Positions 31,800 to 52,099 of a stretch of DNA of 64,000 nucleotides are shown here, in pieces. The notes below the pieces were generated by a model, which saw only the letters and a program-made list of their open reading frames with translations, made no database searches and was not told where the DNA came from. The stretch covers positions 688,436-752,435 of the forward strand of contig CAYJMS010000001.1 in NCBI GenBank assembly GCA_964371615.1, written 5' to 3'. A program made the position numbers and the translations under genes. This DNA is from an uncultured Chitinophagaceae bacterium (GTDB lineage: Bacteria > Bacteroidota > Ignavibacteria > UBA10030 > UBA8401). Numbering within the stretch: position 1 is the first letter of the stretch; each line of letters begins with the position of its first letter.

Positions 31800-33467
31800 T
31801 CATTCGACAGCTGCGGGGAACATCATTCTGATCGTTGTCCCTTTGCCGAGTTCGCTGTCGATCTCGATTTTCCCTTTGTGATCGTCAATCACTTTTTTAA
31901 CAATGGACATGCCGAGACCGGTTCCGTGTTTCTTTCCATAGGTCACAAACGGCTCAAAGATTCTCCGTTTTACCTCTTCCGGCATACCGGTGCCGGTATC
32001 GGTAAATTCGATCTTCACCATTCCGCCGATATCCTCGGTTGAGACGGAGAGCGATCCGCCGTTCGGCATGGCATCGCGTGCGTTGCTGGCGATATTATAG
32101 AATACCCGGACCATTTTATCCTGGTCGAGTTTTACTGTTCCCTTGAAATTAAGGTGCTTTTCTAATTTGACGTTGTTCTTGGTGAGGTCTTTTTCGATGA
32201 ACATCAGAACTCCCTCCATAACATCCTCGAACACCACATTTTCCATGTTCGTTGCGCTCACACCCCGGCTGAAGTCGAGAATTTCCTGCGCCATATTGAC
32301 AAATCGGTCGACCTGATGGATCATCTCGTCCGCCATTTTTGCCGCCTCTTCGTTCCCCGATTTCTTCTTCATTACCTGAGCATACACCCGCAGCGTTCCC
32401 ATCGGATTCTTGATGTCATGGATGATTGTGCTGGCCATGCGTCCGACGGCGGATAGTCGTTCGTTGTTCACCATCTCTTGGGCCATCCGGGCATTTTCGA
32501 TGGCAATGGAAGCGTGAATGGAAAGGGCGTTCAGGAACTCCTCGTCCTGCGGAGTAAACGGTCCCCCTTTTTTGTTTAACATTTGAAAGACGCCGATAAT
32601 CTTGCCGTCGCGATTGCGCATCGGCATGGTGAGCATATTATTCGTGCGGTAACCGGTCTTTTTGTCCACTTCGGGATTAAAGCGGGGATCGTTGTAAGCA
32701 TCGGGTATGTTCACGATCTCGCCCGTCTTTGCCACATAGCCGGCTAGTCCTTTGCCGAGCGGCAGCCGTATCTCAATCACTTCTGTGCCGCGTAGGGCTT
32801 TCGACCAGATCTCACCTTTTAATTCATCAACCAGATATAATGTACCGCGATCCGAGGCGATTGATTTAATCGCCGTTTCTAGAATTACATCGAGCAATTT
32901 ATCGAGATCGAGTGTCGAATTGACAGTCTTTGCAGCATCGATCAGGGTGTTTAACTTATTTATGTGCTGCTTCGATATCTCCACCGTCCGGTCCAGCTCC
33001 TGTACGATCGTCTGATCGGCAGCGCGTAACCGCTTCGTAACATTCCGCAATATGTTCAATTGGATGATGTTGTTCGATTTCAAGAGATTATCAAAATCCT
33101 GTTTGCTGATGCTGGCGCACACCGTGTTCTCCACGGCCATCGTCCGAGCAGACCGCACCTGATCGTCCAACAGCTCCATCTCTCCGAAAAAATCTCCCTT
33201 GGTAAGATGGGCAAGAACTGTTTCCGCTCCATACTTTGTCACTTTAGAGATCTTGATCTTGCCATCGAGGATAAGATACAATCGCTCTCCGCGGGTATTT
33301 TCCTGGAAAACGACGGTATTGGCGGCAAATCTCTCTTCTCGACACATCTTGAGAATTGCGTTCAAATTCACATCGGCCACATATTTAAACGCCGACGCGG
33401 ATTTGAGATTTTCGAGAGTGAGGAGTGATTGTTCCATTGGCTCTTTTCGAGTTGTGATTGGTTTCAA
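31800..33467 (-). CDS. Soluble sensor histidine kinase: cNMP-binding (CAP-type) domain, GAF domain, HisKA and HATPase_c
   Basis: FGEMELL...RSARTMAVE cNMP-binding signature. GAF region. H-box HDIKNP. G1/G2 boxes DTGTGM and GTGLGM. No TM segments. Confidence 0.85.
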   Translation of the reverse strand: MKPITTRKEPMEQSLLTLENLKSASAFKYVADVNLNAILKMCREERFAANTVVFQENTRGERLYLILDGKIKISKVTKYGAETVLAHLTKGDFFGEMELLDDQVRSARTMAVENTVCASISKQDFDNLLKSNNIIQLNILRNVTKRLRAADQTIVQELDRTVEISKQHINKLNTLIDAAKTVNSTLDLDKLLDVILETAIKSIASDRGTLYLVDELKGEIWSKALRGTEVIEIRLPLGKGLAGYVAKTGEIVNIPDAYNDPRFNPEVDKKTGYRTNNMLTMPMRNRDGKIIGVFQMLNKKGGPFTPQDEEFLNALSIHASIAIENARMAQEMVNNERLSAVGRMASTIIHDIKNPMGTLRVYAQVMKKKSGNEEAAKMADEMIHQVDRFVNMAQEILDFSRGVSATNMENVVFEDVMEGVLMFIEKDLTKNNVKLEKHLNFKGTVKLDQDKMVRVFYNIASNARDAMPNGGSLSVSTEDIGGMVKIEFTDTGTGMPEEVKRRIFEPFVTYGKKHGTGLGMSIVKKVIDDHKGKIEIDSELGKGTTIRMMFPAAVE

Positions 33468-36371: not shown

Positions 36372-38975
36372 TTAGAACGTAAATCCAGTCGTCACGTACC
36401 CTTCAACCTGTTCTCGAGACCGTGCGACGGAAAGAGCAACAGTCAGATTTTTGTCCACTGCATACGTCCAGAGGCCCGCTCCGAATCCGGAGTGCCAGAG
36501 CAACGAACGTTCGCCCCGTACAAATACCCGTCCGGTTTCCGCAAAGAGAGTTCCGCCGAGATGAAACGGCAGAAGTACCCTGATCGTCGCAATTTTAAAT
36601 CGCGATTCGGCATGGAGTGAAATGCTGGCATCGCCGGAGAAGCGTTGCTTTTCAAATCCGCGGACAGACTCCGTACCGCCCAGGAATGAACCTTCGAAAA
36701 ACGGATATGTGCCGGAGATATTTTCCGCAAACAGACGGAACGCCAGCGTTGTCGTCGAAAAGAGCGATGTCGTAACATAGGTACGCATATCGAGATATGA
36801 TCGTGTGAATTCTGACCTGCTGCTCAACACTTTCGGGAAATGATAGAGGCCGGATCGGATGAATGAACCCGCCGTCGGAAAAACAGAATGATCGCGCGTA
36901 TCCCATTCCGCTTCACCCTGCAGACTCATGATCGTCATATTTTCAGTACCGTAGGGGAGAAGCGTAGTGATGAACGTTGAATCTTCGAGGAGAATATCAC
37001 TATGCTTGAGCAGGATTCCGCCGATAATCGATAATCGGTCCGTAAAACCGTATTTCACCTGCGGATGAAGAATGTATTGCCCCTGCTTTACTTTATAATA
37101 TTCTTCATCATCGGGGGAATGTGGCAGCGAGAATGAATTCCCTTTTCCAAAGAAGCGTAAGACCTCGATGCCGGATAATCGGATATCGAGAATGTAGTGA
37201 AGGTGTCGATTGTATGTCCTAAAGAGGCCGCGATAATCAATCCGGAATGCTTCGTGATTTGTTGCATAGGCAGCGCTCAGATCCATTCGATAAAAATACG
37301 GATCGTATTTGAAACCATACGCGAACACTGTTTGACCTCCGCCAAGAATGATTCCGTCGGCGGAATTATATGCTGCTACTGCCAGAGGACGAAAATCAAA
37401 TCCGAAATCCCTGTACGGTTCGACCATTGCCGTATCCGACTCAAACAGCGGGAATGTGTGGTCGATAATCGTGGTGGATGATTGTCCTCGTACTACCGTC
37501 TTTTTACCGGTATCATAGACGAATGTCTGTGCGGCGGGAACAATTCCGGGAATATAATCCAGCACGCCGCCGCGCACAACGGATTCATCGACAATGACAT
37601 CTTTCCCTTCGCCGCCGTCCACGTGTATGTCGATGCTGGAAGCGACATTACCGGAAAGATGAGCGATGTCGTCTCCATCCTTTAGATATATCCGGATTTC
37701 GTTTGTTTCTTCCGCAGAGAATCTGCGGCGGTAAATCGGATCGTCCATCGGTTTCCCGGTCGTCTTATCACGCTTCCAAACGGTGATGTCAACACTCCGG
37801 TCGTCATTCCGGACCGCTTCGACATATTCATTTTTGTTGCTGCAATGGATATCGACATACCGTGCGGACAATTCGTAAAATTTCATGGAGATTTCGTGTA
37901 AACGGTCGCGTCGTTCCCGAAGGATATTTTCGATGGCAGGTCCCTCCAGCGCAAGATGTTCCTGCGGCATGAGTCGGACAGCGGAAGCGATCAGTGAATC
38001 GGTAAGCCGGTCAACAAGCCATGACGTAACATTCTTCCATTCTTCTCTATTCAAGCCGGAAAGGAATCTGCGGTCCAGATGTCGCCCGGACCAGGTAAGA
38101 TCGTCGATCAACGGAAAGATATTGTCATAACTTTCTATCTGCTTGACGGAGAGAACGATCAGCCACGGAATTAATCCGTCGATCTTCGCCAATGCCTGAT
38201 CGCGGTCTCGCGGAATCGGCCTCCAAATTCGTTTTCCTTCTTTTTTATATCCCGCCCATTTCCATTGATCGATATGCCGGTCCCAATCGCCGATAAAAAT
38301 GTCGACCAGCCGTGCGGTAAGAAATTCCTTCTCATCGACAACTTCGTCATTATCGTCATTCAGTTCACGAATGAGGGAATACGATCCTTTGATTTTATCC
38401 GCCCCTGCAAAAACGACGGATCCTTTGTCGTCCGGATTTTCTTCGAAAGTGCCGAGCAAGCCGCCAAAATCTTTTTGGAATTCTCCCAGTGCCGGAGAAT
38501 CCGGTAGTACTACCATGCGGGGTGTCGCCTGCAGAATTCCCGCAGCATCAACAATCGGCGCTGCAATGACGGCGGAGAAGGGATGGGTCCAGCTGATCTG
38601 ATCTTGGACGAGATCCTTGACGAAAGTATCCAATAATTCCTCAGGGAGCAATCTGCCGGGATCTTTGTCCAGCGAACGGAATTTATATTCCTTCCCGTCA
38701 CGACCGATGAATTGCAGCGATCTCGTCTGAAATCCCCCGCCGCGTTTTGTCGGTATCAATCCACCGGCGGTTTTGTCGAGATCCAGTACGGGGACAGTGA
38801 CCGGAATAGCCCAGAGATCCCTCCAATGATCGCCGAACAGGAACCGCTTGATCGGTCCGGCTTGATAATGGTTTCCCGGTACAACGGTAACGGAATCCGA
38901 AGAAACGATTTGTCCCTGCGAAACAACAGTGACGGCAACTATCAGAACAAAAAATATCGATTTGGTGTTTATCAT
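36372..38975 (-). CDS. Omp85-family outer-membrane beta-barrel protein with a large N-terminal domain that does not resemble POTRA repeats
   Basis: 867 aa with signal peptide. C-terminal barrel has the Omp85 signature FLGGTESVRGF and ends in F. The N-terminal approx 500 aa includes GDWDRHIDQW. Confidence 0.7.
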   Translation of the reverse strand: MINTKSIFFVLIVAVTVVSQGQIVSSDSVTVVPGNHYQAGPIKRFLFGDHWRDLWAIPVTVPVLDLDKTAGGLIPTKRGGGFQTRSLQFIGRDGKEYKFRSLDKDPGRLLPEELLDTFVKDLVQDQISWTHPFSAVIAAPIVDAAGILQATPRMVVLPDSPALGEFQKDFGGLLGTFEENPDDKGSVVFAGADKIKGSYSLIRELNDDNDEVVDEKEFLTARLVDIFIGDWDRHIDQWKWAGYKKEGKRIWRPIPRDRDQALAKIDGLIPWLIVLSVKQIESYDNIFPLIDDLTWSGRHLDRRFLSGLNREEWKNVTSWLVDRLTDSLIASAVRLMPQEHLALEGPAIENILRERRDRLHEISMKFYELSARYVDIHCSNKNEYVEAVRNDDRSVDITVWKRDKTTGKPMDDPIYRRRFSAEETNEIRIYLKDGDDIAHLSGNVASSIDIHVDGGEGKDVIVDESVVRGGVLDYIPGIVPAAQTFVYDTGKKTVVRGQSSTTIIDHTFPLFESDTAMVEPYRDFGFDFRPLAVAAYNSADGIILGGGQTVFAYGFKYDPYFYRMDLSAAYATNHEAFRIDYRGLFRTYNRHLHYILDIRLSGIEVLRFFGKGNSFSLPHSPDDEEYYKVKQGQYILHPQVKYGFTDRLSIIGGILLKHSDILLEDSTFITTLLPYGTENMTIMSLQGEAEWDTRDHSVFPTAGSFIRSGLYHFPKVLSSRSEFTRSYLDMRTYVTTSLFSTTTLAFRLFAENISGTYPFFEGSFLGGTESVRGFEKQRFSGDASISLHAESRFKIATIRVLLPFHLGGTLFAETGRVFVRGERSLLWHSGFGAGLWTYAVDKNLTVALSVARSREQVEGYVTTGFTF

Positions 38976-39132: not shown

Positions 39133-42100
39133 ATGTCAAAGAACGGAATATCTGAGAAGTTCGAGCAGGTGCTGGAATCATTCGGCCCTAACACGAGCTA
39201 TGTCTGGGACGTCCTTCAGCAATATCTGGAAGATCCCGCTTCGGTCAACGAAACGTGGCAGCAATTGTTTGCTGACGTCGTATCGTCCGGCGAAGTGCAT
39301 CTGCTGCAGCGAACGGAATCAAAAAAATCATCCCCCGATGCGGTCCCGGCTGCGGTGCCAGCCCAGGCAAAATCGTCAAAACAAACGGTCCCGGTGCCGT
39401 CGCTGGCCGTTGTTCACAAGCAACTTTCGGCGATCAGCGGCGTAGCGGCAAAGATCGTGGAAAATATGGAAGCGTCGTTAACGCTTCCCACGGCAACATC
39501 GTTGCGAGTTATCCCCGTCAAGGTTCTGGACGAGAATCGTTCCCTGCTGAATAAATATCTTACATCCCGTTCGCGCGGTAAAATTTCGTACACGCACATT
39601 GTTGCATGGGCGATTGTAAAGGCATTAAAAAAATATCCGAACATCAACGCCGCATTCACTCGAGTGGAAGGCCAGGCGTTTAAAGATGAGAAATTACAGA
39701 TTAATATCGGCATCGCCGTGGATATGACACGGAAGGACGGATCGCGGACGCTGTTGGTGCCGAATATCAAGAACGCAAACGAAATGGATTTTGCTGGATT
39801 CGTCGATGCGTACGATTCGATTATCGATAAATCCCGACGGTCTGCACTCGATCCGGGTGATTTTCAAGGTACATCCATTTCGTTGACAAATCCCGGAACG
39901 GTCGGGACGGTGTCGTCGGTGCCGAGGTTAATGCCGGGCCAGGGTTCCATCATAGCCGCCGGTGCGATAGGCTACGATGCCGCACATCAGGGTATGTCGC
40001 CGCAAACGCTCTCGTCGCTCGGCGTCAGCAAAGTAATGAACATTACCTGCACGTACGATCACCGGATTATTCAGGGTGCGGAATCGGGACAATTCCTCCA
40101 ATACATCCACACATTGCTTGTCGGTGAAGAGCGCTTTTACGAAGAGATTTTCTCCGATCTTCGCATTCCGCTCAGTCCCGTCAAATGGGCTGCGGATATC
40201 AACGCGGTGGCAATCGGCGGAACCGCCTCGGATGAGTACGTGGAGAAACAATCACGCGTGCAGCAACTTATTAATGCATACCGTGTGCGGGGGCACCTGA
40301 TCGCCCATCTTGATCCGCTGTTGGATGAACCGAGAAACCATCCTGAACTTGATCCCGGATATTACGGCCTGACCGTCTGGGACCTGGACCGTGAGTTTCT
40401 CTTCACGAACAAGGAGGGGTATTCCCGCGCGACATTGCGAGAGATCCTCGATGTCTTGTACGCTACCTATTGCGGTTCGATCGGCGTGGAGTTCATGAAT
40501 ATTCAGGATCCGGAGCAGAAGAAATGGCTGATTCAAAAGATGGAACCGTCGCGCAATCGGGCTCTGTTGCCGCGCGAACGAAAAATCCAGATTCTCAAAA
40601 AACTGATTCACGCCGAAGGTTTTGAACGGTATCTGCACACGAAATTTGTCGGTCACAAACGGTTTTCGCTCGAAGGGGCCGAATCGTTTGTGTCAATCGT
40701 CGATGTGTTGTTGGACGAACTCGCCAATCAGGGAGCTGCGCGGGCGGTGATCGGTATGGCGCACCGCGGACGTCTGAACATACTTGCCAATGTAATCGGA
40801 AAGTCGCTCGCCAAGATATTTTCAGAATTCGACGGCAGTATCGATCCGACAACCATTCAAGGCTCCGGCGATGTGAAATATCACCTTGGCGCACATGGCA
40901 CGCATAGGACCCTGAGCGGAAAAGATATTACGGTCGAGGTTGCTCCGAATCCGAGTCATCTTGAAGCGGTGAATCCGGTGGTGGAAGGAATGGTCCGTGC
41001 TATGCAAGATCGTGCCGGCGATACCGAACGGAACAAAGCGGTGCCGCTGCTGGTACATGGCGATGCAGCGTTCGCGGGACAAGGAATCGTTGCGGAAACG
41101 CTGAATCTCTCGCAGTTGAAAGGGTACCGCACCGGCGGTACAATCCATATTATCATCAATAATCAGATCGGATTCACGACTTCGCCGGATGATGCGAGAT
41201 CAACTCCATACTGTACTGATGTTGCAAAGATGGTACAGGCGCCGATCTTTCATGTTAACGGCGACAATCCCGAGGCATGCGCACGCGTTGCCGCACTGGC
41301 GGTGGCGTACCGTACAGCATTCAAAAAGGATGTCGTGATCGACATGTTCTGTTACCGGAAGTACGGCCATAACGAGGGGGATGAACCGAGTTACACACAG
41401 CCGCTGTTGTATAAAAAGATCAAATCCCATCGCTCGACACGGGAGATGTACGGTGAACGGCTGATTCTCGACAAAGAAATGACGCGAGAGGAATACGAAC
41501 AATTGCAGTCGGAGGCGAAACAGCGGTTCGAACGGGCGCATGAAGCATCCCAAAAACGGGAGATGCATATGAAAGCGGAGATTGCACTTGCCGTGACGCA
41601 GGAGCAAATCGAAGCAATGCAGCCGTTCAAAGAAACGAAAGTGACGTTCGACGCGCTCAAAGAAGTTTCTGTACGACTCGGAACTGTACCGCAGGAATTT
41701 GCCGTCAATCCCAAGCTGGTGAAGATGCTGGAGCATCGCCGTCATATCGACCGTGAAACAAGGATCGATTGGGGACATGCGGAAGCGCTGGCGTTCGGCA
41801 CATTGGTCTATGAAGGAAACGGCGTTCGCGTCAGCGGGGAAGATGTCGGACGCGGGACGTTCAGCCACCGTCACGCAAAACTCTTCGATGCGAATACGGG
41901 AAAAGATTTTATTCCGTTGCAGCATATCCGCGAAGGGCAGGGGCCGTTCAATGTATTCGACAGTCTGCTGTCGGAGTACGCAATTCTCGGCTATGAATTC
42001 GGATACAGCGTCACCGATCCGCTGTCGCTGGTCGTCTGGGAAGCGCAGTTCGGCGATTTCGCAAACGGCGCCCAGGTCATCATCGATCAGTTCCTCGCCG

Positions 42101-42786
42101 CATCCGAAGCGAAATGGCAACAGCCGTGCGATCTTGTCTTGCTGGTTCCCCACGGATACGAAGGGCAGGGACCGGAACATTCCAGCGCTCGGTTGGAGCG
42201 GTATCTCCAATTGTGCGCGGAAGACAATATGCAGGTATGCAATCTCTCGACGCCGGCGCAATACTTCCATGCGCTGCGACGGCAGATGCGGGACGCACAG
42301 CGTCGGCCGCTGATTCTGATGACTCCGAAGAGCCTGTTGCGGCATCCGCTGGTGAATTCACCGGTCCACGAATTCACCGACGGTAAATTCAGGCGGGTCA
42401 TCGACGATCCGCAATGTGACGCCGGTTCCGCACGACGGGTGGTGCTCTGCTCCGCAAAGGTGTATTATGACGCAGTGCAATTCATGCAGGAATCGAAGAT
42501 CGATCGGACAGCCCTGGTTCGTCTGGAACAGTTCTACCCGTTCCCGGATACGGAATTGAAAGAGATCGTTGAGAAATATCGGAATGCCGAAGAAATTGTC
42601 TGGATGCAGGAAGAACCGCAGAACATGGGAGCATGGAATTTTCTGGCAGACCGCCTGCGGGACGTGATCCTTCCCGGCCAGCGGCTCCGCTATTGCGGAC
42701 GTGCCGCATCGGCGAGCACGGCAACAGGAACATTAAAACGTCATCAATCCGAGCAGGAGAAATTGCTCAAGGAAGCGTTGGAATGA
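39133..42786 (+). CDS. kgd: Multifunctional 2-oxoglutarate dehydrogenase, OdhA/Kgd type (N-terminal E2-like acyltransferase domain fused to E1o)
   Basis: 1217 aa. E2 catalytic-type DHRIIQG motif in the N-terminal third. ThDP-binding GDAAFAGQG...N in the E1o part. Length matches actinobacterial OdhA/Kgd, from memory. Confidence 0.88.
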   Translation: MSKNGISEKFEQVLESFGPNTSYVWDVLQQYLEDPASVNETWQQLFADVVSSGEVHLLQRTESKKSSPDAVPAAVPAQAKSSKQTVPVPSLAVVHKQLSAISGVAAKIVENMEASLTLPTATSLRVIPVKVLDENRSLLNKYLTSRSRGKISYTHIVAWAIVKALKKYPNINAAFTRVEGQAFKDEKLQINIGIAVDMTRKDGSRTLLVPNIKNANEMDFAGFVDAYDSIIDKSRRSALDPGDFQGTSISLTNPGTVGTVSSVPRLMPGQGSIIAAGAIGYDAAHQGMSPQTLSSLGVSKVMNITCTYDHRIIQGAESGQFLQYIHTLLVGEERFYEEIFSDLRIPLSPVKWAADINAVAIGGTASDEYVEKQSRVQQLINAYRVRGHLIAHLDPLLDEPRNHPELDPGYYGLTVWDLDREFLFTNKEGYSRATLREILDVLYATYCGSIGVEFMNIQDPEQKKWLIQKMEPSRNRALLPRERKIQILKKLIHAEGFERYLHTKFVGHKRFSLEGAESFVSIVDVLLDELANQGAARAVIGMAHRGRLNILANVIGKSLAKIFSEFDGSIDPTTIQGSGDVKYHLGAHGTHRTLSGKDITVEVAPNPSHLEAVNPVVEGMVRAMQDRAGDTERNKAVPLLVHGDAAFAGQGIVAETLNLSQLKGYRTGGTIHIIINNQIGFTTSPDDARSTPYCTDVAKMVQAPIFHVNGDNPEACARVAALAVAYRTAFKKDVVIDMFCYRKYGHNEGDEPSYTQPLLYKKIKSHRSTREMYGERLILDKEMTREEYEQLQSEAKQRFERAHEASQKREMHMKAEIALAVTQEQIEAMQPFKETKVTFDALKEVSVRLGTVPQEFAVNPKLVKMLEHRRHIDRETRIDWGHAEALAFGTLVYEGNGVRVSGEDVGRGTFSHRHAKLFDANTGKDFIPLQHIREGQGPFNVFDSLLSEYAILGYEFGYSVTDPLSLVVWEAQFGDFANGAQVIIDQFLAASEAKWQQPCDLVLLVPHGYEGQGPEHSSARLERYLQLCAEDNMQVCNLSTPAQYFHALRRQMRDAQRRPLILMTPKSLLRHPLVNSPVHEFTDGKFRRVIDDPQCDAGSARRVVLCSAKVYYDAVQFMQESKIDRTALVRLEQFYPFPDTELKEIVEKYRNAEEIVWMQEEPQNMGAWNFLADRLRDVILPGQRLRYCGRAASASTATGTLKRHQSEQEKLLKEALE

Positions 42787-43433: not shown

Positions 43434-44495
43434 ATGAAAAAGATTCTTGTTGTGCTCATAATGACTGTTGTCGCGGTGCCCGGCGTTGCACAGGAGTTCG
43501 GAAAATATGCCGGCGAATTTATGTACATCGGCATCGGGGGCCGTGCACTTGGTGTCGGCAGCGCATATGCCGCACTGGCAAACGACGTCACTGCCGGCTA
43601 TTGGAATCCCGCCGGTTTGGCGCGTATCGAATATCCCCAGATCGCCCTGTCCCATGATGAACGCTTCGGAAACCTCATTAATTACGACTATGCCGCCTTT
43701 GCCGTCCCGTACGGCGCAAATACCGTCGATTCTGAAACGGGAGAAACGACATACAATGCCTCGTCGTTTGCCATAAGTGTTATTCGTCTCGGCATTGACG
43801 GAATACCCGATACACGCAAAGCATGGGCAGACAGCAACGGCAACGGACTGTTCGACGATGGCTCAAATCTCCGTCCCGACTACGGCGCAATCACATTCTT
43901 TAATGCCAGCGACTGGATTATCTATTTGACCTATGCGAAACATTCGTCGGAGAATCTCTTTATCGGCGCAAATCTCAAAATCATTCGCCGGAATATCGGC
44001 GACTTCCACGGTACGGGAATCGGTTTCGACGCGGGTGTGCAATATCTTGCAGCGAAAGATTTTGTTGTGGGTGCAAACCTGCAGGATGTAACGACAACGC
44101 TGGTGGCATGGAACACCGGAACAAATGAATTGATATCCCCGACGCTGAAACTTGGCGCGGCGTACGCATTCGAAATTTTCAACGGACGGCTGACTCCCAC
44201 AATCGGCGCGGATGTCCGGTTCGAAAACCGTCGTTTTTCCGCTATGACAAACATCGGACCGATCAGCATTGATCCGCAAGCAGGACTGGAATTCGATTAT
44301 AAAAATGTCGTTGCAATTCGGGGCGGCTATAACGAGATCGGCAATATCACCATCGGCGCCGGAATCCACCTGCGCAAGCTGGACATCGATTATTCTTTTG
44401 CAAAGTTTGATGCTGCCGATCAGCTCGGCAATACGCATCGCATTTCACTCCGGCTGACGCTTGAAGAAGACCGATACCGCCGGGGTGCGGAATAA
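43434..44495 (+). CDS. FadL/PorV-like outer-membrane beta-barrel protein
   Basis: Signal peptide. GIGGRALGVGSAYAALANDVTAGYWNPAGLA N-terminal motif is characteristic of the FadL/PorV/PorP-SprF barrel group. Confidence 0.5.
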   Translation: MKKILVVLIMTVVAVPGVAQEFGKYAGEFMYIGIGGRALGVGSAYAALANDVTAGYWNPAGLARIEYPQIALSHDERFGNLINYDYAAFAVPYGANTVDSETGETTYNASSFAISVIRLGIDGIPDTRKAWADSNGNGLFDDGSNLRPDYGAITFFNASDWIIYLTYAKHSSENLFIGANLKIIRRNIGDFHGTGIGFDAGVQYLAAKDFVVGANLQDVTTTLVAWNTGTNELISPTLKLGAAYAFEIFNGRLTPTIGADVRFENRRFSAMTNIGPISIDPQAGLEFDYKNVVAIRGGYNEIGNITIGAGIHLRKLDIDYSFAKFDAADQLGNTHRISLRLTLEEDRYRRGAE

Positions 44496-45068
44496 ATGCA
44501 TTGGCGATCGCAGCACGGACCGCGATTACTCACCGCAGCTGCGATCCCGGTAATTTTTTTCCTGGTCTCCTGCACCTCTACCGAACCGATTCCCCGTTAC
44601 CAACGATCACCAGAAACATCACCTGAAATTACGACGGTTCGCAGTCTCTATCCGCCGGGATGGGACGATGTGACCGGCCGCAGCGCTGTTCCGTCGATTT
44701 CACTTTGGCTGGTCAACACCGATCGTGCGGCTTCGATGACAGTGCGTTCGATCACCGTCGATGACAGTACACGAGTCCTGTTGTTGAAGGAAGATATTTG
44801 TATGATCGGTCATCTTTCACTCCGTCTCAAAATGGAAGAGCGTCACAACGGACGACGCATAACACGTGCGCCGGAACGGATGAACGCTACGATCGAATAT
44901 TGTTCGTATGTGTATGAGGAAAACGGTTTATTGCGTCGGGTCGTTGTCTTTCGGAAGGGAGGAAAAATATTTGAATCGGAATTACTGCAGGAGGGACACG
45001 AACAGGAATTTCAGATGCTGGTGAACGATCAAAACACTCTATTGGAAATTGTCATTGCGCAGGAGTGA
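44496..45068 (+). CDS. Lipoprotein of unknown function, translationally coupled to the FadL/PorV-like gene
   Basis: Lipobox LVSCTS. Start codon directly follows the upstream stop. Confidence 0.4.
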   Translation: MHWRSQHGPRLLTAAAIPVIFFLVSCTSTEPIPRYQRSPETSPEITTVRSLYPPGWDDVTGRSAVPSISLWLVNTDRAASMTVRSITVDDSTRVLLLKEDICMIGHLSLRLKMEERHNGRRITRAPERMNATIEYCSYVYEENGLLRRVVVFRKGGKIFESELLQEGHEQEFQMLVNDQNTLLEIVIAQE

Positions 45069-45083
45069 TCGGTCATCACCGCG

Positions 45084-47291
45084 TTATTTCGTCTTCATCT
45101 CAAACACGCCGCTCCAATCTTCAGGCGGTGGATTTTTCATATACTTTTCAGCGCGGCTAAAATACAACTGAGACGGTCCGTCGTCATGGACGATCTCCAT
45201 TGCATCGTAAAATGAATGCATCGCTTCCGAAAACCGCCGTTCACGATAGAGTTTTAATCCGGTATTGTATAAATCGATCATACGATGCTTGTCCGGATCG
45301 ATCTCTTCGGATCGTTCGGCAATGAGTTCGAAAACGCGGATTGGTTTTGATTTTCCTTTGACGATCAATAAATCCAATTCGCGACACAGCAGTTGATCCT
45401 TGACGAGGTCATACGCCCGCTCGCTGATCAGAATGTGCGTGCCGTATGTCTTGTTCGCTCCTTCCAACCGTGACCCGAGATTCACCGCATCGCCGATGAC
45501 CGTATAATCGAACCGGCCGGCGCCGCCGACATTGCCCACTACCATTTCATCGGTGTTCAATCCCATACGTACTACCAAATTTGGCTTTCCCTCCTTATTC
45601 CACCGATCGGCGATCTCCTGGGTTTTCCTTTGCATCTGCAGCGCAGCCCGGCACGCATTCAATGCGCTGTTTTCCAACGGTATCGGCGCACCCCAGATTG
45701 CCATCACCGCATCGCCGACATATTTGTCGAGCATGCCGTCGTGTTTCAGTATGATGTCCGTCATGGCACTCAGGTATTCGTTTAACAGGTGGACCAGTTC
45801 CACCGCATCAAGTTTCTCCGAAAAATTCGTGAACGACGCGATATCCGAAAAGAAAACGGTCAATTCTTTTTTTTCACCGCCGAGTCGGAGTTTTTCAGGA
45901 TGTGCAATCAGTTCGTTCACTACCGACGGATTGAGATACTGGCTGAACATCCCTTTGATCATTGTTTTCTGCTTGCGTTCGGTCAGATATTGGTATACAG
46001 CACTGCCGAAATAGTTGAGGACTACCGCTGCAATGGGTGAGACGACCGGAAACAGGATAGAATGGGCGGAAAACATGTAGTAGAAAAATTGAAGTATCCC
46101 GACGATAAGCAGCGCGGAGAATGTTAGCGCACCGATTTCAGCAAGAAATGCGTTTCGGGTCCGGATCTGCTTCAGCATCGTCACGACGAAGAATGTTATG
46201 CCTGAGAGAAACACAATATACAGCAGTACAATAAAATCTGAGACATTGTGGATATATTTCTGATCGATGAGCATTTGCAGAACATTGGCATGCAATTCTA
46301 CGCCGTACATCTGGTTCCGGTTACTCAATCCCTCTTCGGAGACGGAGACATTGAAAAGATCCTTTGATTCTGAGAAATAAGGTCCGATCAGTACGATCTT
46401 ATCTTTGAACAACTCGTCATGGAGCAATCCGTAATCCGGGTCATCGAATGCATTGATCGATGTATGGAGTTCACGTTCTTCATTCGTTTCGAACTCATCG
46501 TCATCGAGAATATTGACGATGTCAAGTTCTTTAAACGTTTTCCCGGCAGACCCATAATAATTTATGAGAAGAGAAATATCGTCGTATTTTGGGATTATTC
46601 TCTCCCCGACAATAAAAAATCCTTTCCGATCCTCCGCCGGCGTTTTCGCCTTGATTCCGGCGGTAATATTCAGCAGCGCAAATGAGAATGTCGGCAGGAA
46701 TATATCACGATCGGGCATTTTGGTGAATGGCATGTAACGGCGAAATACACCGTCGATGTCGTTCGGCACGAAGACGCTTCCGACGGCGCTGTCTGCCGGA
46801 TAAAATATCGAATGGAAATTCTCGTCTTCTCGATATACTGTCGCGTCGGACCTGCTTAGGTCAGTTTTTCCTGCGACCACAACATTCCGGTATTGTTGAA
46901 TGGCAGCGTACAATTCGTCGTCGTGGTGAGGGCCGCGTGTGTCGGGTTGTTCGAACGTCAAGTCGATGCCGATCGCTTTTACACCGGCGCGGTTCAGATT
47001 GTGCACTGCTCGGGCATAATAACTACGCGGGAAAGGAAACCGTTCGGGAACCGTCGATTCTGATTTGTCGGAAATCGATACGATAATAACATCGAGGGAA
47101 TCTGCTGATATCCCAACCGGGCCTCGATCTGCAAAAGCACGGTCAATAAACGAAAGCCGGAACCTGTCAAAGAAATCGAATTCGTACAGTTCATCACGAA
47201 CGAAAATTATCACAACGAGGGAAATGGAGAGACATAACGCAGCACGATTGATCCATGTGCGGAAAGACGATGCCGAAGATGTACTGTCCAT
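45084..47291 (-). CDS. CHASE2 sensor domain class III adenylate cyclase
   Basis: N-terminal periplasmic CHASE2 region flanked by TM helices. Cyclase core FFSDIASFT, LDKYVGDAVMAIWG and GDAVNLGSRLE with the metal-binding Asps, the Lys and the Asn-Arg pair. C-terminal TPR-like tail. Confidence 0.85.
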   Translation of the reverse strand: MDSTSSASSFRTWINRAALCLSISLVVIIFVRDELYEFDFFDRFRLSFIDRAFADRGPVGISADSLDVIIVSISDKSESTVPERFPFPRSYYARAVHNLNRAGVKAIGIDLTFEQPDTRGPHHDDELYAAIQQYRNVVVAGKTDLSRSDATVYREDENFHSIFYPADSAVGSVFVPNDIDGVFRRYMPFTKMPDRDIFLPTFSFALLNITAGIKAKTPAEDRKGFFIVGERIIPKYDDISLLINYYGSAGKTFKELDIVNILDDDEFETNEERELHTSINAFDDPDYGLLHDELFKDKIVLIGPYFSESKDLFNVSVSEEGLSNRNQMYGVELHANVLQMLIDQKYIHNVSDFIVLLYIVFLSGITFFVVTMLKQIRTRNAFLAEIGALTFSALLIVGILQFFYYMFSAHSILFPVVSPIAAVVLNYFGSAVYQYLTERKQKTMIKGMFSQYLNPSVVNELIAHPEKLRLGGEKKELTVFFSDIASFTNFSEKLDAVELVHLLNEYLSAMTDIILKHDGMLDKYVGDAVMAIWGAPIPLENSALNACRAALQMQRKTQEIADRWNKEGKPNLVVRMGLNTDEMVVGNVGGAGRFDYTVIGDAVNLGSRLEGANKTYGTHILISERAYDLVKDQLLCRELDLLIVKGKSKPIRVFELIAERSEEIDPDKHRMIDLYNTGLKLYRERRFSEAMHSFYDAMEIVHDDGPSQLYFSRAEKYMKNPPPEDWSGVFEMKTK

Positions 47292-47293
47292 GG

Positions 47294-49654
47294 CTAGAAG
47301 TCGATGCGGTACAGCAGGCTCACAAAAGAATCGTTCTTGCTGGTCAACGCCGCCAGTGCGGACGATGAATTCCGAATGAATTGAAACTGCAGAACCGCCA
47401 GTTGATGGTCAGTGATGGAATATTGTAAACTAGTTTCGAACAACAGTCGGCTAAGATCGCCGAATGTCGGTGCAAATGTTCCCGTCAATCGTAGCACCTC
47501 TTGATACAGTTTATAGCGCCCGGTCAGCGACAGTGTCTGATAGCCGAGTGATCCTTGCATGACGACACCGGTGGAATCGGTTTGCGGGAAGGTAATACTG
47601 CTGACGGAGAAACCGACGCTGCTTTCGAGGCGAAGATTATGCGCAGTGCTGATGAGCAAGACGGTGTTGAGTGTCGAAACATCCTGTTCTTTCGGAGTCT
47701 TATCATCTTTGCCCGACATATCCAGATTCAAAGAAATATTGTGCCGCCCCCAGTACGAAAAATCGTACGATGATTGCAGGAAATAACGGTCCGTGTTATC
47801 ATCGATGGCGCGCAATGCAATCTGACGGGCGACGACGTCGGCGGTGTCGAATGCATTGATCGGATTTCTGTTCCTGTTCGCCCCGTACCCCAGCGTAATA
47901 TTCGGATAATCCTTTGCAGGATAGTACGAAACGGATGTGTTGACGGTGGTGTACGTGGTTGTCGCAATCTCAAAACCGGAGGTATTATTCTTTAGTTCTT
48001 CATAACTGCCGGTGAGAAATAATCGATTGTCCAGCAGCCGTAAACGATCGGTGACGTTATATCCCTGTATATCTTTTCGTATAGTCGAAGCGCCGGAGGA
48101 GGTATAGTCTTTTCCGTGAAAGAGGAACGCCGCTTTAAGAAAATTGCCGAAATAGTTGAACGAAACGGCCGTTTCGTAGACCAGGGATGTGAGTCCGGCA
48201 GGATTGACCGGAACAAGGTTTTCATTTACCGTGATCAGATTACGGGCGAGGGGAAGGAGTTTTTTCAACTGGTCCGCGTCACCCTTGTCGAACGTACCGC
48301 GAGCCACTGCGGCATCGATGCTGTCGCTATTAAACTCCGCACGCGATATATCGACGTTATTAAGGCTTAACGCGCTCTGGGCAGTAATCTCAATCCGTCG
48401 CCGGTCGATCCCGATCAGCATATCCGTTCCGAACACTACATTCTCCTGCGGCCGTACGACGATCGGCTGGAGCGGATCGAATTCATCCTTGGATTTGAGA
48501 TAGGTAAATCCCCATTGGAAGTTTTCTCCTTTTCCGAAACTCGGCCTCACGACGGTCATGTTTCTCTTCAACGCCTGCGGTACGGCGTTGACTTCCACCC
48601 GGCGGATAATTTCGCCGCTGGCAGCGTTGATATTAAATGCGCCAAGCAACAGATCGAAAGTATAACCGCGTATCCGCCGTCCATCCATAATCGTCGAAGG
48701 GAACCGCGGGTAGGCATCGCCCAAACCGATTTTTACGTACCGTGCATCAAGTCCGAGAAAATATCTGTTCTGCGGCTGGTTCTCCGGTTTTTCCTCGGAA
48801 GTAATGGTGAGATTCGTCGTGGCTTTCAGGAATTCGAGGTACGATGCGCTTGCCCGAACATCGAGACGGTTATATGTTTTTACAATACCTTTAATATCCT
48901 CCCGGCGCGTTTCTGCCTGAGCATTTCCGAACCCTTGAAACGACGATCGGATTTCTTCCGCTTCTTCTTCAGTGATGACGTTGAAGCCCCGATTCAATGA
49001 TGTCAGGCGTTTTCCCTCTGCATTGAATGTCTGCACGGAAAGATTGACCCCCCCCTTAAGCAGTCCGGCAGGAATCGCATCGGGTGGGATTATCAACAAA
49101 TCGTCGAACATCATCGCTTTATCCGAAAGATCGATGCCGTTCAACAGCACCTTCGTTTTACTGCGATCGGTGTTTTCATCGGCGTAGACAAACGAAATCG
49201 AGATATACGTCTCGCCGCCGGTAATCTGCTCTCCGTCTTCGGGACTGAGAATGATGACCTCGCTTTTCGGAGCGGGAGCGATCATAATGCGGAATGGATT
49301 CGTTTCTGGATTGTCGAATGGAAATGTCTCTGTCGTACCATCGATACCCGTTACAATGACATAGGCTTCGACGAACGGCGGTTGCATGACGGCGGCAGGA
49401 ATTTCTGCCACGGCGGAATCCCGAAGAAGCTGCATCTCAACGGAAGTATATTCCGATTCCCCGAACGAGCGGTACTGCAATACCACCCGTTGAATGTTCG
49501 ACGAGAATTGCAATTCTGCGGCGACCATGACCGGTTTTTTTTCCAGTGCCGACGCAGGCCGTATTGCACGTACATACGTATTGACCTGTCCGCTCACTTC
49601 CGCTGCAAATACAAACAGTACGAGCGGCAGCATCAATAAAAGGCGTTGTTTCAT
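47294..49654 (-). CDS. Large outer-membrane beta-barrel protein, family unknown
   Basis: Signal peptide after MKQRLLL. Alternating beta-strand pattern. C-terminal LLYRIDF. The stop lies 2 nt before the cyclase start. Confidence 0.5.
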   Translation of the reverse strand: MKQRLLLMLPLVLFVFAAEVSGQVNTYVRAIRPASALEKKPVMVAAELQFSSNIQRVVLQYRSFGESEYTSVEMQLLRDSAVAEIPAAVMQPPFVEAYVIVTGIDGTTETFPFDNPETNPFRIMIAPAPKSEVIILSPEDGEQITGGETYISISFVYADENTDRSKTKVLLNGIDLSDKAMMFDDLLIIPPDAIPAGLLKGGVNLSVQTFNAEGKRLTSLNRGFNVITEEEAEEIRSSFQGFGNAQAETRREDIKGIVKTYNRLDVRASASYLEFLKATTNLTITSEEKPENQPQNRYFLGLDARYVKIGLGDAYPRFPSTIMDGRRIRGYTFDLLLGAFNINAASGEIIRRVEVNAVPQALKRNMTVVRPSFGKGENFQWGFTYLKSKDEFDPLQPIVVRPQENVVFGTDMLIGIDRRRIEITAQSALSLNNVDISRAEFNSDSIDAAVARGTFDKGDADQLKKLLPLARNLITVNENLVPVNPAGLTSLVYETAVSFNYFGNFLKAAFLFHGKDYTSSGASTIRKDIQGYNVTDRLRLLDNRLFLTGSYEELKNNTSGFEIATTTYTTVNTSVSYYPAKDYPNITLGYGANRNRNPINAFDTADVVARQIALRAIDDNTDRYFLQSSYDFSYWGRHNISLNLDMSGKDDKTPKEQDVSTLNTVLLISTAHNLRLESSVGFSVSSITFPQTDSTGVVMQGSLGYQTLSLTGRYKLYQEVLRLTGTFAPTFGDLSRLLFETSLQYSITDHQLAVLQFQFIRNSSSALAALTSKNDSFVSLLYRIDF

Positions 49655-49752
49655 TGGAAAGAAGGGATTGTCCGTAAAAAGAATCGCCTGCAATCTATAA
49701 AATACCATATAGAGTTGCAAGCGATTATCAATGTTCGTACGGATGGCAGCTG

Positions 49753-50850
49753 CTACTTATATTCGATGACCATCGTTTTTTTCTTCCCGTTCGGATCGGT
49801 GAATTCTATCCGTATTTCGTTCATTACACCTGCCTGGACCGGAAGAACTGCCGGATTGGATTCGGGAGACTGGCTCGGTGACGTGAATTCAGAACCATCC
49901 TGCAATCGCAACGAAGCATAGACCTGCATTGTCGGTGCAAAGACCTCCGCAGCGGGGAGGGTAAATTTGACCGTTCTTCCGCTCAATGTCGATTTCAACG
50001 GTTTAAACATCTGATCCGTTTTGCTTCGGTAGAAGAGCGAGAAATCCGTGACGATCTTCGATAGCGAATCCATTGTAATCGATGATTGCGAAATTTCTAC
50101 CGTTACCGTTAAATCCTGATTTTCTTTCGACACCGGAGCGCTGATTGTCATGCCGATGGAAATGCCGGACCCGGACGTGGAACCGGTATCCGGTTCAACA
50201 TTCGATCCTTCAGACTTTCCGGAGTCGGGATTTTCCGGCGAACCAAGATTGAGTAATCGTTTTTCCTCGTCGGTGGATTCCTCGATTTTTATGGACCCGT
50301 TGGACATTGAGTATCCGGTCTGTCCGGCGTTCAATGTTGCGCTGAAATTCGACAGAAGGTTCCGGAGATCGACGGTTCCCGAACCGAGGATCAAGACATC
50401 ATTGGAGTCCTGTCCGGCAATCAGCAATCCGCCGGTTCCGCGGATGGATGCGACAGAAGTCGGTGTGGAAAATTCAAATTTCTCGTTCGGACGTTTTTTT
50501 ACATTAAAGCCGAGTTCTCCCTGTTGCAGAAAGACGTTTTTCGAGAATTCCCCTTTGGCAATTTCACCGTTGACCGTCACTTCGGATTTTTCCTGGACGC
50601 GGAGGACCGAGTTTTCCAGAAACTTGATGATGGCAAACGAATTCTCACCCGTACGGACAAGGTCGCCGGAAATAAGCGGCGTTGCGGGTTTTGCCTTTGA
50701 CCAGTCTTTTGATTCCGTTTTATGTTCTACCGTGCCGACCGGTTTGAACATGGTGGCGACGGTTTTTTTCTTTTGCGCTGTCGACGTCGAGAGTCCGAGG
50801 ACGATGGAAAGCGCAACGATGACGATGGATTTCATGGATGCTCCTTTCAC
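49753..50850 (-). CDS. FecR-domain secreted protein
   Basis: Signal peptide, then FecR-fold signature (ISGDLVRTGENSFAIIKFLENSVLRVQEKSEV...ASIRGTGGLL). Ser/Gly-rich linker and a C-terminal beta-rich domain. Confidence 0.7.
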   Translation of the reverse strand: MKGASMKSIVIVALSIVLGLSTSTAQKKKTVATMFKPVGTVEHKTESKDWSKAKPATPLISGDLVRTGENSFAIIKFLENSVLRVQEKSEVTVNGEIAKGEFSKNVFLQQGELGFNVKKRPNEKFEFSTPTSVASIRGTGGLLIAGQDSNDVLILGSGTVDLRNLLSNFSATLNAGQTGYSMSNGSIKIEESTDEEKRLLNLGSPENPDSGKSEGSNVEPDTGSTSGSGISIGMTISAPVSKENQDLTVTVEISQSSITMDSLSKIVTDFSLFYRSKTDQMFKPLKSTLSGRTVKFTLPAAEVFAPTMQVYASLRLQDGSEFTSPSQSPESNPAVLPVQAGVMNEIRIEFTDPNGKKKTMVIEYK

Positions 50851-50854
50851 GTTG

Positions 50855-52012
50855 TTAGTCCTCGATCCTGACGGCGGTGATCCGGTCTTTATTTTCCGTT
50901 AACAGCCGCTGCAAGTCCTGCGGGGAAATACGGACTCCATTCAGGACGATGCTGTTCGTATTGATCGTCAGGTTTTGATCCTGGACAGCGTTGAAAATGC
51001 TCTGAAAATCACCGGAAGAAAATGTGGTCTGCAGAATGTTGATCAGCACCTGTCCCTGCGGATCGGAGATGACAAATGAACGGATTGTCCGCAGCGGATC
51101 GACGTCAAAACCAAAGGCGGTGGAAATGCCGTCCAGCACGATCACATACATTTTTCCCCGTTCCAGCTGCCGGGGGCCGCGGATGAACTCCACGCCAATC
51201 CTGCCGGAAGCCGTTTGCGGATAGGTGAATGTCGTCAGGTTGCCCGATGCCCGCCTGTCGATGCGGACCTGCAAATGCGGATCCGATGCGCCGATTGCAT
51301 CTTCCAGGGATTGATGCTCCGGTCGTTTTTCGTAGACGGAGAGAATCACTGCACGAGTGTCGTATGTCCATTGAAATTGCGGAAATGGCGTCGGGTATAG
51401 ATAACCATTGGTAAACGGCACATCGAGAATGGCTGTGGTCGGATTGGTGACGTTCACTGATCTGTAGATTTCTATTGGCGCCTCACTGACGGCAACACCG
51501 CCGACGGAATCGACCGTCACCACCATGCGGATTTCATACAATCCGGAGGGGACTCGTCCACCACTTGCCGGATCGAGGACCTTATCCTTCAATTTGCTTT
51601 TCATATCCTCGTTGACATCCGTCGTGAAATCAATGTCGGAACCGGGATTGTCTGCGTCCTTACTTGTGAAAATTCTGCCCGCAGCCGGAACGAGAAACGG
51701 ACGCGTCGTTCTGCCGGAAGCGATCTGCTCCGTCTGCCGGTCCTCTTCAAGAGTCACATGCGCTATAAAAGTCAGACTTACCTTGATGTCCGGTTTCCCC
51801 GGTGCGTTATTGAAGATATTGAGCGAAAAATTGGAGGGAGAAATGTCCTTCACTTTTTCCGCCAATGGATCGACCAGCACAGCGGCATTGATAATATCCG
51901 CATCCGTGATGGTCGGAATCACTGTCACTGACTGTCCGTAAGCAAAGGATAGGAACAGCAATGCAGTACAAGCGCTTCGTCTCATGGTTTTACTCCTTAT
52001 TGGTAGTGACAA
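50855..52012 (-). CDS. Secreted protein of unknown function, first gene of the FecR/OMP/cyclase operon
   Basis: Signal peptide (MRRSACTALLFLSFAYGQ). No recognised domain. Lies 4 nt upstream of the FecR gene. Confidence 0.4.
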   Translation of the reverse strand: MSLPIRSKTMRRSACTALLFLSFAYGQSVTVIPTITDADIINAAVLVDPLAEKVKDISPSNFSLNIFNNAPGKPDIKVSLTFIAHVTLEEDRQTEQIASGRTTRPFLVPAAGRIFTSKDADNPGSDIDFTTDVNEDMKSKLKDKVLDPASGGRVPSGLYEIRMVVTVDSVGGVAVSEAPIEIYRSVNVTNPTTAILDVPFTNGYLYPTPFPQFQWTYDTRAVILSVYEKRPEHQSLEDAIGASDPHLQVRIDRRASGNLTTFTYPQTASGRIGVEFIRGPRQLERGKMYVIVLDGISTAFGFDVDPLRTIRSFVISDPQGQVLINILQTTFSSGDFQSIFNAVQDQNLTINTNSIVLNGVRISPQDLQRLLTENKDRITAVRIED

Positions 52013-52099
52013 AATAACTCTTTTCTATTATCAAAATGTGTTAAATGTCACGAGTTGGTAAAAACTTCCGAATTCTTAAAGATTTCGGAAGTTTTAAAA

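Follow-up and report, generated by a model that had tools for sequence, protein, structure and literature searches.

In a 64,000-nucleotide stretch of contig CAYJMS010000001.1 from an uncultured bacterium (the window; all positions below refer to it), four minus-strand genes form a conserved cassette. In the order g1-g2-g3-g4, they encode a secreted immunoglobulin-like (Ig-like) protein, a periplasmic FecR-domain protein, an outer-membrane barrel, and a CHASE2 adenylate cyclase. The reading that we favor, by a little over even chances, is that the barrel, perhaps acting with g1, passes an outer-membrane event on to cyclic AMP (cAMP) synthesis via Ig-like domains, the FecR protein, and CHASE2. 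This reading is based on domain identities, secretion signals, the barrel fold, invariant catalytic residues, and co-occurrence of the genes across phyla.

An open reading frame (ORF) check of the window recovered all four ORFs at the coordinates given in an earlier note made from the sequence alone, with revised start codons for g1 and g2. The first cassette gene, g1 (50855 to 51985; secreted, 376 amino acids [aa]), has its most probable start at 51985, an ATG that has an AAGGAG ribosome binding site and yields a protein identical to the recorded P0121; use of the TTG at 52012 is unlikely. The FecR-domain gene g2 (49753 to 50835; secreted, 360 aa), recognized by its Pfam match and signal peptide, has its most probable start at 50835 (ATG) rather than at 50850 (GTG). 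For the outer-membrane protein gene g3 (47294 to 49654; 786 aa), assigned from a structural model and Foldseek matches, the public gene call starts at 49633 and yields 779 aa, while an exact look-up of the 786-aa form found no record; the ATG at 49654 and the public start are equally possible. The inner-membrane CHASE2 adenylate cyclase gene, g4 (45084 to 47291; 735 aa), was assigned by Pfam and hydropathy. The 2 nucleotides (nt) reported earlier between the barrel stop and the cyclase ATG are exactly CC, between the g3 TAG and the g4 ATG. The earlier description of the genes as nearly contiguous suits this junction and that of g1 and g2 (19 nt), while the 98-nt gap between g2 and g3 holds a conserved hairpin and promoter-like element.

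Upstream of the cassette lie dxr and rseP. A terminator-like hairpin with a U-tract (52061 to 52095, minus strand; RNA fold of −19.5 kcal/mol, z score of −3.35) directly follows rseP and sets the cassette apart from dxr-rseP. At the other end, a convergent gene stops 15 nt past the end of g4. Because of this hairpin and the convergent gene beyond the cyclase, the cassette is bounded at both ends. The region from 43434 to 45068 on the plus strand contains two ORFs (353 and 190 aa) that run convergently toward the end of g4 and have no confident family; the 353-aa ORF shows a subthreshold match to UPF0164.

Pfam and hydropathy analyses bore out the gene content, domain assignments, and secretion signals originally proposed, and FecR, CHASE2, and Guanylate_cyc were all matched. 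The g4 protein has a predicted layout of one transmembrane segment, a periplasmic CHASE2 domain, three further transmembrane segments, a class IIIb cyclase domain, and a C-terminal tail. Its CHASE2 sensor domain (PF05226; residues 28 to 365; 46197 to 47210, minus strand) scored 146.9 bits (E value of 1.1e-42) versus a gathering cutoff of 26.3 bits, and its class III cyclase catalytic domain (Guanylate_cyc, PF00211; residues 474 to 651; 45339 to 45872, minus strand) scored 85.5 bits (E value of 4.4e-24). Hydropathy predicts one hydrophobic segment (residues ~15 to 35) ahead of CHASE2 and three (between residues ~349 and 430) after it, the first of these at about residues 349 to 376. Since one and three hydrophobic segments flank it, CHASE2 is predicted to face the periplasm; the protein is accordingly modeled as an inner-membrane protein whose cyclase domain is predicted to be cytoplasmic.

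The best solved relative of the g4 catalytic domain is Pseudomonas aeruginosa CyaB (PDB 3r5g; 8.6e-43), with which the g4 motifs FFSDI, DKYVGDAVM, and DYTVIGDAVNLGSRLE align residue for residue. This alignment assigns D483 and D527 to metal binding, K523 and T597 to the substrate, and N604 and R608 to transition state stabilization. All six residues are present, in line with the earlier claim of a complete catalytic set, and they are invariant in 73 to 74 of 75 orthologues. A Lys/Thr pair is the mark of class IIIb adenylate cyclases, and by these residues g4 is predicted to be a class IIIb, CyaB-like adenylate cyclase. The metal Asp, Lys, Thr, Asn, and Arg motifs of CyaB are identical to those of g4. 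The two proteins differ in that the membrane domain of CyaB is MASE2 instead of CHASE2, and CyaB is not known to have FecR or barrel partners.

Hydropathy gives g2 an N-terminal, cleavable-looking signal peptide and no other hydrophobic segment. Its FecR domain (PF04773; 50419 to 50661, minus strand) begins at residue 64 and was matched by Pfam with an E value of 2.5e-10 (41.1 bits versus a 24-bit cutoff). A C-terminal Ig-like domain (49828 to 50148, minus strand) is homologous to residues 30 to 128 of g3, the first Ig-like domain (D1) of that protein (hhalign probability of 99.3%, E value of 3e-20); this shared domain points to a link between g2 and g3. The FecR-domain protein occurs in a short form of ~232 aa that consists of the FecR domain only and in a long form of ~360 aa, as in the window, and the C-terminal Ig-like domain is present only in the long form. 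NCBIfam returned weak similarity to the Leptospira FecR-domain lipoproteins Lsa33 and LipL45, and a sequence search against solved structures with g2 gave nothing significant. Within the FecR domain, Gly133-Thr134 (in the motif IRGT; window positions 50434 to 50439) is at least 90% conserved in 102 orthologues. E. coli FecR cleaves itself at a Gly-Thr bond in its periplasmic part (PMC12036975). By analogy, Gly133-Thr134 would be the position equivalent to that bond, and g2 might be processed into two fragments by self-cleavage there.

The third protein had been called an outer-membrane beta-barrel, and structure prediction upheld that call. An AlphaFold 2 (AF2) model of g3, built on 41 homologues, reached a mean predicted local distance difference test (pLDDT) score of 83.9. 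It comprises a signal peptide, two N-terminal beta-sandwich (Ig-like) domains, D1 (49271 to 49567, minus strand; paralogous to the g2 C-terminal domain by hhalign) and D2, and then a barrel (residues 239 to 786; 47297 to 48940, minus strand; delimited by the model secondary structure and Foldseek). The barrel has 26 DSSP strands between residues 239 and 785 and a helical insert at residues 443 to 473. In the model, D1 and D2 should hang into the periplasm. Foldseek searches of the PDB returned solely large outer-membrane barrels (FimD/PapC ushers, MtrB, LptD, AlgE, and TonB-dependent transporters), with the ushers, MtrB, and LptD on top and with template modeling (TM) scores of at most 0.33 at ~10% identity. 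The protein also shows the general hallmarks from which an outer-membrane location is predicted: a signal peptide as its only hydrophobic segment by hydropathy, a closed barrel of antiparallel strands, even in number, and an aromatic C-terminal residue (the chain ends in ...YRIDF, with a C-terminal Phe). The predicted fold class of g3 is therefore secure as an outer-membrane barrel, with no family that can be named from the model.

Family searches gave g3 no Pfam or NCBIfam match. Usher (PF00577) and LptD/OstA were absent from Pfam/NCBIfam matches at E values below 0.1; Plug, STN, and TonB_dep_Rec were likewise absent in Pfam; and 10 distant g3 relatives searched against Pfam produced only subthreshold Ig-like matches. 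A profile search of PDB sequences with g3 returned a single match, a weak one (E value of 9e-4) between D1 and the Ig-like domain of Porphyromonas gingivalis peptidylarginine deiminase. A full-library profile search placed 2,365 representative clusters in the family at E values of ≤1e-3, so that g3 belongs to a large, undescribed outer-membrane barrel family that lacks a Pfam model. Elsewhere in the window, a few kilobases from the cassette, 36372 to 38975 (minus strand) encodes an 867-aa protein of the Omp85 superfamily (BamA/TamA-like).

For g1, hydropathy shows an N-terminal signal peptide and no further hydrophobic segment, and neither Pfam nor NCBIfam gave a match. The AF2 model (pLDDT of 80.6) consists of two Ig/fibronectin type III (FN3)-like beta-sandwiches and a small helical C-terminal domain. 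Foldseek returned only generic Ig-like matches with TM scores below 0.3, with CfaE (a pilus adhesin) and PapD (a chaperone) among the weak ones. The possibility that g1 is homologous to an Ig-like domain of either g2 or g3 was rejected (hhalign probability below 1%).

Conservation of the cassette was examined across relatives of g3. The close set of the g3 family comprises 211 proteins, all labeled “hypothetical,” from metagenome-assembled genomes of Ignavibacteriales/Bacteroidota; distant members occur in candidate division KSB1 and in Marinimicrobia/Fidelibacterota. Scanning of species-representative genomes revealed a g3 relative in 184, the best 80 of which were analyzed, and a metagenome scan seeded with distant g3 members (a narrower alignment) added 35 more loci. 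Counts were obtained by searching window-clade profiles against all ORFs of 116 nonredundant loci. These loci represent Ignavibacteria, KSB1, and Marinimicrobia, at least three phylum-level lineages, with g3 identities ranging from 23% to 92%.

Of the 102 loci with enough DNA, 97 have a FecR gene immediately upstream of g3, and a CHASE2 cyclase gene immediately follows g3 in 87 of 91 informative loci, with one further case being a filtering artifact. The earlier note had named loss of synteny in relatives among the outcomes that would refute its proposal, and on these figures the proposal passes that test decisively. A plain profile detected g1 in 62 of 86 loci; of the remaining loci, 19 were checked by iterative searching, and 17 proved to have g1, in each case immediately ahead of the FecR gene, so that with this search included a g1 homologue is present in nearly all related loci. 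The D1 domain of g3 was found in 109 of 116 loci. Cassette order and orientation are kept in about 90 to 95% of the 116 loci while the flanking genes vary, and three divergent g3 members (34 to 49% identity) lie within the same ordered set of four genes, among different neighbors. The four-gene arrangement is far beyond chance, and the g3-g4 pair is its tightest core. In one distant relative (L115, 9657 to 13328), the gene after g3 encodes a cyclase of 1,224 aa with a tandem pair of CHASE2 domains, and upstream of g3 no FecR gene was detectable. All four proteins diverge at similar rates across loci, as expected for partners; the idea of g1 as a fast-evolving, ligand-binding part was rejected on the same rates.

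The gap between g2 and g3 contains a compact element (49676 to 49726, minus strand) in which a hairpin of 12 plus 5 bp, followed by CUUUUU, overlaps the motif TTGCAA-17 nt-TAGATT. The hairpin reads AAUCGCUUGCAA-C-UCUAU ... AUAGA-UUGCAGGCGAUU, and its predicted fold has a free energy of −28.2 kcal/mol (z score of −4.5). The element occurs a single time within the 64-kb window, and in every window-clade locus it is found once, just upstream of g3. In an alignment of 33 sequences, 91% of cells were paired, versus 31 to 39% with slid partners. Three pairs at the stem base covary (UA in 15, CG in 11, and AU in 4 sequences at one; AU in 19 and GC in 6 at another; UA in 18 and UG in 14 at the third), while the core is invariant, with TTGCAA-17 nt-TAGATT fixed in both sequence and spacing. 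Rfam gave no match to the g2-g3 region. The element is kept in a locus where g1 and g2 are absent (L042), and in L025 it is kept with a decayed 3′ arm of the hairpin; several relatives have an extra, ordinary terminator hairpin between g2 and the element.

On its sequence, TTGCAA-17 nt-TAGATT is a putative promoter with sigma-70-type geometry, and the element as a whole could represent a terminator or attenuator for g1-g2 that overlaps a promoter for g3-g4. Expression of the cassette is thus probably split into g1-g2 and g3-g4. The four genes had been presented as one operon. Their adjacency stands, but a single transcription unit is doubtful with a covarying hairpin, a U-tract, and a promoter-like motif lying between g2 and g3.

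Among known systems, the nearest to the cassette is NsrA-CyaK of rhizobia. At the cyaK locus on pSymB of Sinorhizobium meliloti, the abutting upstream gene encodes a 1,190-aa protein annotated as “FecR domain-containing protein.” We take this gene to be nsrA, as reportedly described by Garnerone et al. (2018). The protein combines a FecR domain (residues 66 to 160) with TPR repeats and, at the C terminus, a barrel whose last residue is Phe, and its relatives carry PF00593, the TonB-dependent-receptor barrel domain. Its size and the position of its barrel fit the published description of NsrA, in which the barrel is placed at aa 600 to 1200 (PMC7529298). Experiments in S. meliloti have shown that perception of plant signals by the CHASE2 cyclases CyaK, CyaD1, and CyaD2 depends on NsrA, a barrel protein of the outer membrane (PMC7529298, PMC13001267, and PMC10463352).

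The likeness to the window cassette extends to gene order and to two of the components. A FecR domain and an outer-membrane barrel are encoded directly upstream of a CHASE2 cyclase, as with g3-g4; the FecR domain of g2 is homologous to the NsrA-type FecR domain (BLASTP, 1e-9, 26% identity over 157 residues); and CyaK has the full CHASE2-cyclase architecture of g4 (28% identity over 94% of g4). In contrast, NsrA unites FecR, TPR, and a TonB-receptor-like barrel in one polypeptide, whereas in the window FecR and barrel are separate proteins and there is no TPR. The window barrel, with ~26 strands and two Ig-like domains, belongs to an unrelated, unnamed family, and the cassette adds g1 as a fourth protein. 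Homology between the g3 and NsrA barrels was rejected, as BLASTP found nothing and hhalign gave a probability of 0.1%. Judged from these comparisons, the cassette appears to be built on the NsrA plan but lies outside the NsrA family.

Genes for FecR-domain proteins have been noted beside CHASE2 genes in other lineages as well. In Burkholderiales (the BiofilmReg operon), a gene for a LysM-FecR protein lies beside that for a CHASE2 histidine kinase (PMC5192318), and in Campylobacterota a CHASE2 cyclase gene clusters with genes for a phosphodiesterase, a FecR-domain protein, and a TPR protein (PMC9239204); the authors of both studies read these clusters as one signaling pathway. They share with the window a secreted FecR-domain protein encoded beside a CHASE2 sensor protein. 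The Burkholderia system differs in that its CHASE2 protein is a histidine kinase, its FecR protein carries LysM, and it has no barrel, and the Campylobacterota cluster differs in including a phosphodiesterase and a TPR protein; neither has a g3-type barrel or g1. The earlier note had placed FecR-like proteins beside CHASE2 cyclases in Leptospira-type genomes, a claim for which the searches gave no support beyond the weak NCBIfam similarity of g2: in the single Leptospira cyclase locus inspected, the match covered the catalytic half alone, and no FecR gene was annotated nearby. A Sphingobium plasmid (AP027328.1; locus L122, 2672 to 13602) has a CHASE2 cyclase gene between genes for a CHAT-domain protein and a “heme:hemopexin-binding protein,” the latter followed by a gene for a very large hypothetical protein, and no gene annotated as FecR was found nearby. 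Because of this locus, FecR coupling of CHASE2 cyclases is not universal, and its CHASE2 sensors appear to have another set of envelope partners.

The FecA-FecR-FecI system resembles the cassette in having a periplasmic FecR domain that links an outer-membrane barrel to an inner-membrane signaling step, and the Gly-Thr motif of E. coli FecR is conserved in g2. The two differ as follows: g2 has neither a cytoplasmic anti-sigma domain nor a transmembrane anchor, an extracytoplasmic function (ECF) sigma factor gene is found neither within nor beside the cassette, g3 lacks Plug, STN, and TonB_dep_Rec, and the predicted output is cAMP instead of sigma factor release. Assignment of the cassette to the FecA-FecR-FecI type was rejected for want of an anti-sigma domain, a sigma gene, Plug, and STN.

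In the relay that we favor, an event at or in the outer membrane would alter the g3 barrel, of which g1 might be a partner or plug. The change would pass via the periplasmic Ig-like domains of g3 to the FecR-domain protein g2, which would contact the CHASE2 domain of g4 and thereby switch cAMP synthesis. An envelope-to-cAMP relay had been suggested in the earlier note; such a pathway has experimental precedent in NsrA and its CHASE2 cyclases, while for the window cassette we infer the contacts, the direction, and the signal. Twelve kilobases from the cyclase gene, 31800 to 33467 (minus strand) encodes a 555-aa histidine kinase with cNMP_binding, GAF, HisKA, and HATPase_c domains. That this kinase might be a downstream reader of the cAMP made by g4 is speculative.

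Several observations weigh against the relay. The NsrA precedent transfers by analogy alone because the two barrels are unrelated in sequence. With their low TM scores, the structural matches of the modeled g3 show only a general fold, and machines for transport or insertion, LptD and MtrB among them, likewise have barrels of this size (~26 strands). Simple cotranscription of the cassette is at odds with the conserved terminator-like element. Finally, three loci (L042, L051, and L052) hold only g3-g4, with g1 and g2 absent, and two (L116 and L119) hold g3 without an adjacent cyclase gene; because of these loci, the four parts are not strictly obligatory.

A more specific form of the relay, which we put forward tentatively and judge possible rather than probable, has g1 held inside the barrel lumen or on it, as in the LptD-LptE or MtrB-MtrA pair. 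A surface event would then pass via the FecR adaptor, which by analogy may cleave itself at the conserved Gly-Thr, to the CHASE2 cyclase. The cassette would thus be an undescribed cell surface signaling system of the FCB group (Ignavibacteria, KSB1, and Marinimicrobia) that arose independently of NsrA.

The same barrel could instead belong to a transport, secretion, or surface assembly machine (usher-, LptD-, or MtrB-like) formed with g1 and g2, to which the CHASE2 cyclase is linked as a regulator or monitor. Here g1 would be a passenger, plug, or substrate, and the barrel would not serve to receive an external cue. The large barrels that rank highest for g3 in Foldseek all house or pass a partner protein, the two Ig-like domains of g1 have CfaE and PapD among their weak matches, and g1-g2 and g3-g4 look like separate expression units. 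However, those g3 matches are of fold-level similarity only, and neither Usher, PapD-type chaperones, LptD/OstA, nor any transporter family was matched in Pfam at E values below 0.1. No conserved pilin-like or cargo genes lie nearby, and the partner most tightly kept beside the barrel (87 of 91 loci) is a signaling enzyme. FecR domains are, moreover, known from trans-envelope signaling (PMC12036975). We regard a transport machine as unlikely.

An envelope integrity sensor is another option, and one to which we give a low probability. By a logic like that of Rcs or sigma-E, a faulty assembly or composition of the outer membrane would change the barrel or release the FecR protein, and the cyclase would report the stress as cAMP. 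Its parts and topology are identical to those of the favored relay, and sequences do not distinguish stress sensing from ligand sensing. The cassette is broadly kept in single copy and evolves at similar, moderate rates with no fast-evolving ligand-binding partner, which fits a housekeeping sensor. It adjoins rseP in the window and in one distant relative, but this adjacency is not conserved in most loci, and the terminator-like hairpin stands between rseP and g1. That unrelated envelope proteins sit beside a cyclase by chance, with no functional coupling, is very improbable: one or more of the genes are missing from a minority of loci, but the order and orientation persist across the full range of g3 divergence amid unrelated flanks.

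Other observations in the window concern genes outside the cassette. The minus-strand gene from 27297 to 28517 encodes a 406-aa protein in which an HD domain is joined to PycTM, a pairing that looked unusual; PycTM is the membrane effector domain of Pycsar antiphage systems. The plus-strand gene from 39133 to 42786 encodes a 1,217-aa 2-oxoglutarate dehydrogenase in which an E2 acyltransferase catalytic domain is fused ahead of the E1 domains, a fusion best known from actinobacterial OdhA/Kgd. Between 28695 and 31721 on the plus strand, two adjacent squalene/phytoene synthase family genes are followed by a flavin amine oxidase family gene, a trio reminiscent of the three-gene HpnCDE squalene route.

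CHASE2 is a widespread bacterial sensor domain for which the literature searched reports no ligand or activation mechanism, and the rhizobial NsrA-CyaK system is the only experimental lead on its activation. The cassette presents NsrA-CyaK logic (outer-membrane barrel, FecR, and CHASE2 cyclase) assembled from different parts; the concept has precedent, while the novelty lies in the barrel family, the split architecture, g1, and the intergenic element. It thus provides comparative support for the ideas that the usual partners of CHASE2 in the periplasm may be FecR-domain proteins and that cAMP signaling can be driven from the outer membrane. The cassette also singles out a large, unannotated outer-membrane family and a compact four-protein system that could be reconstituted. 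If the surface signaling form of the relay is true, FecR-domain partners would be the general input route for CHASE2 sensors.

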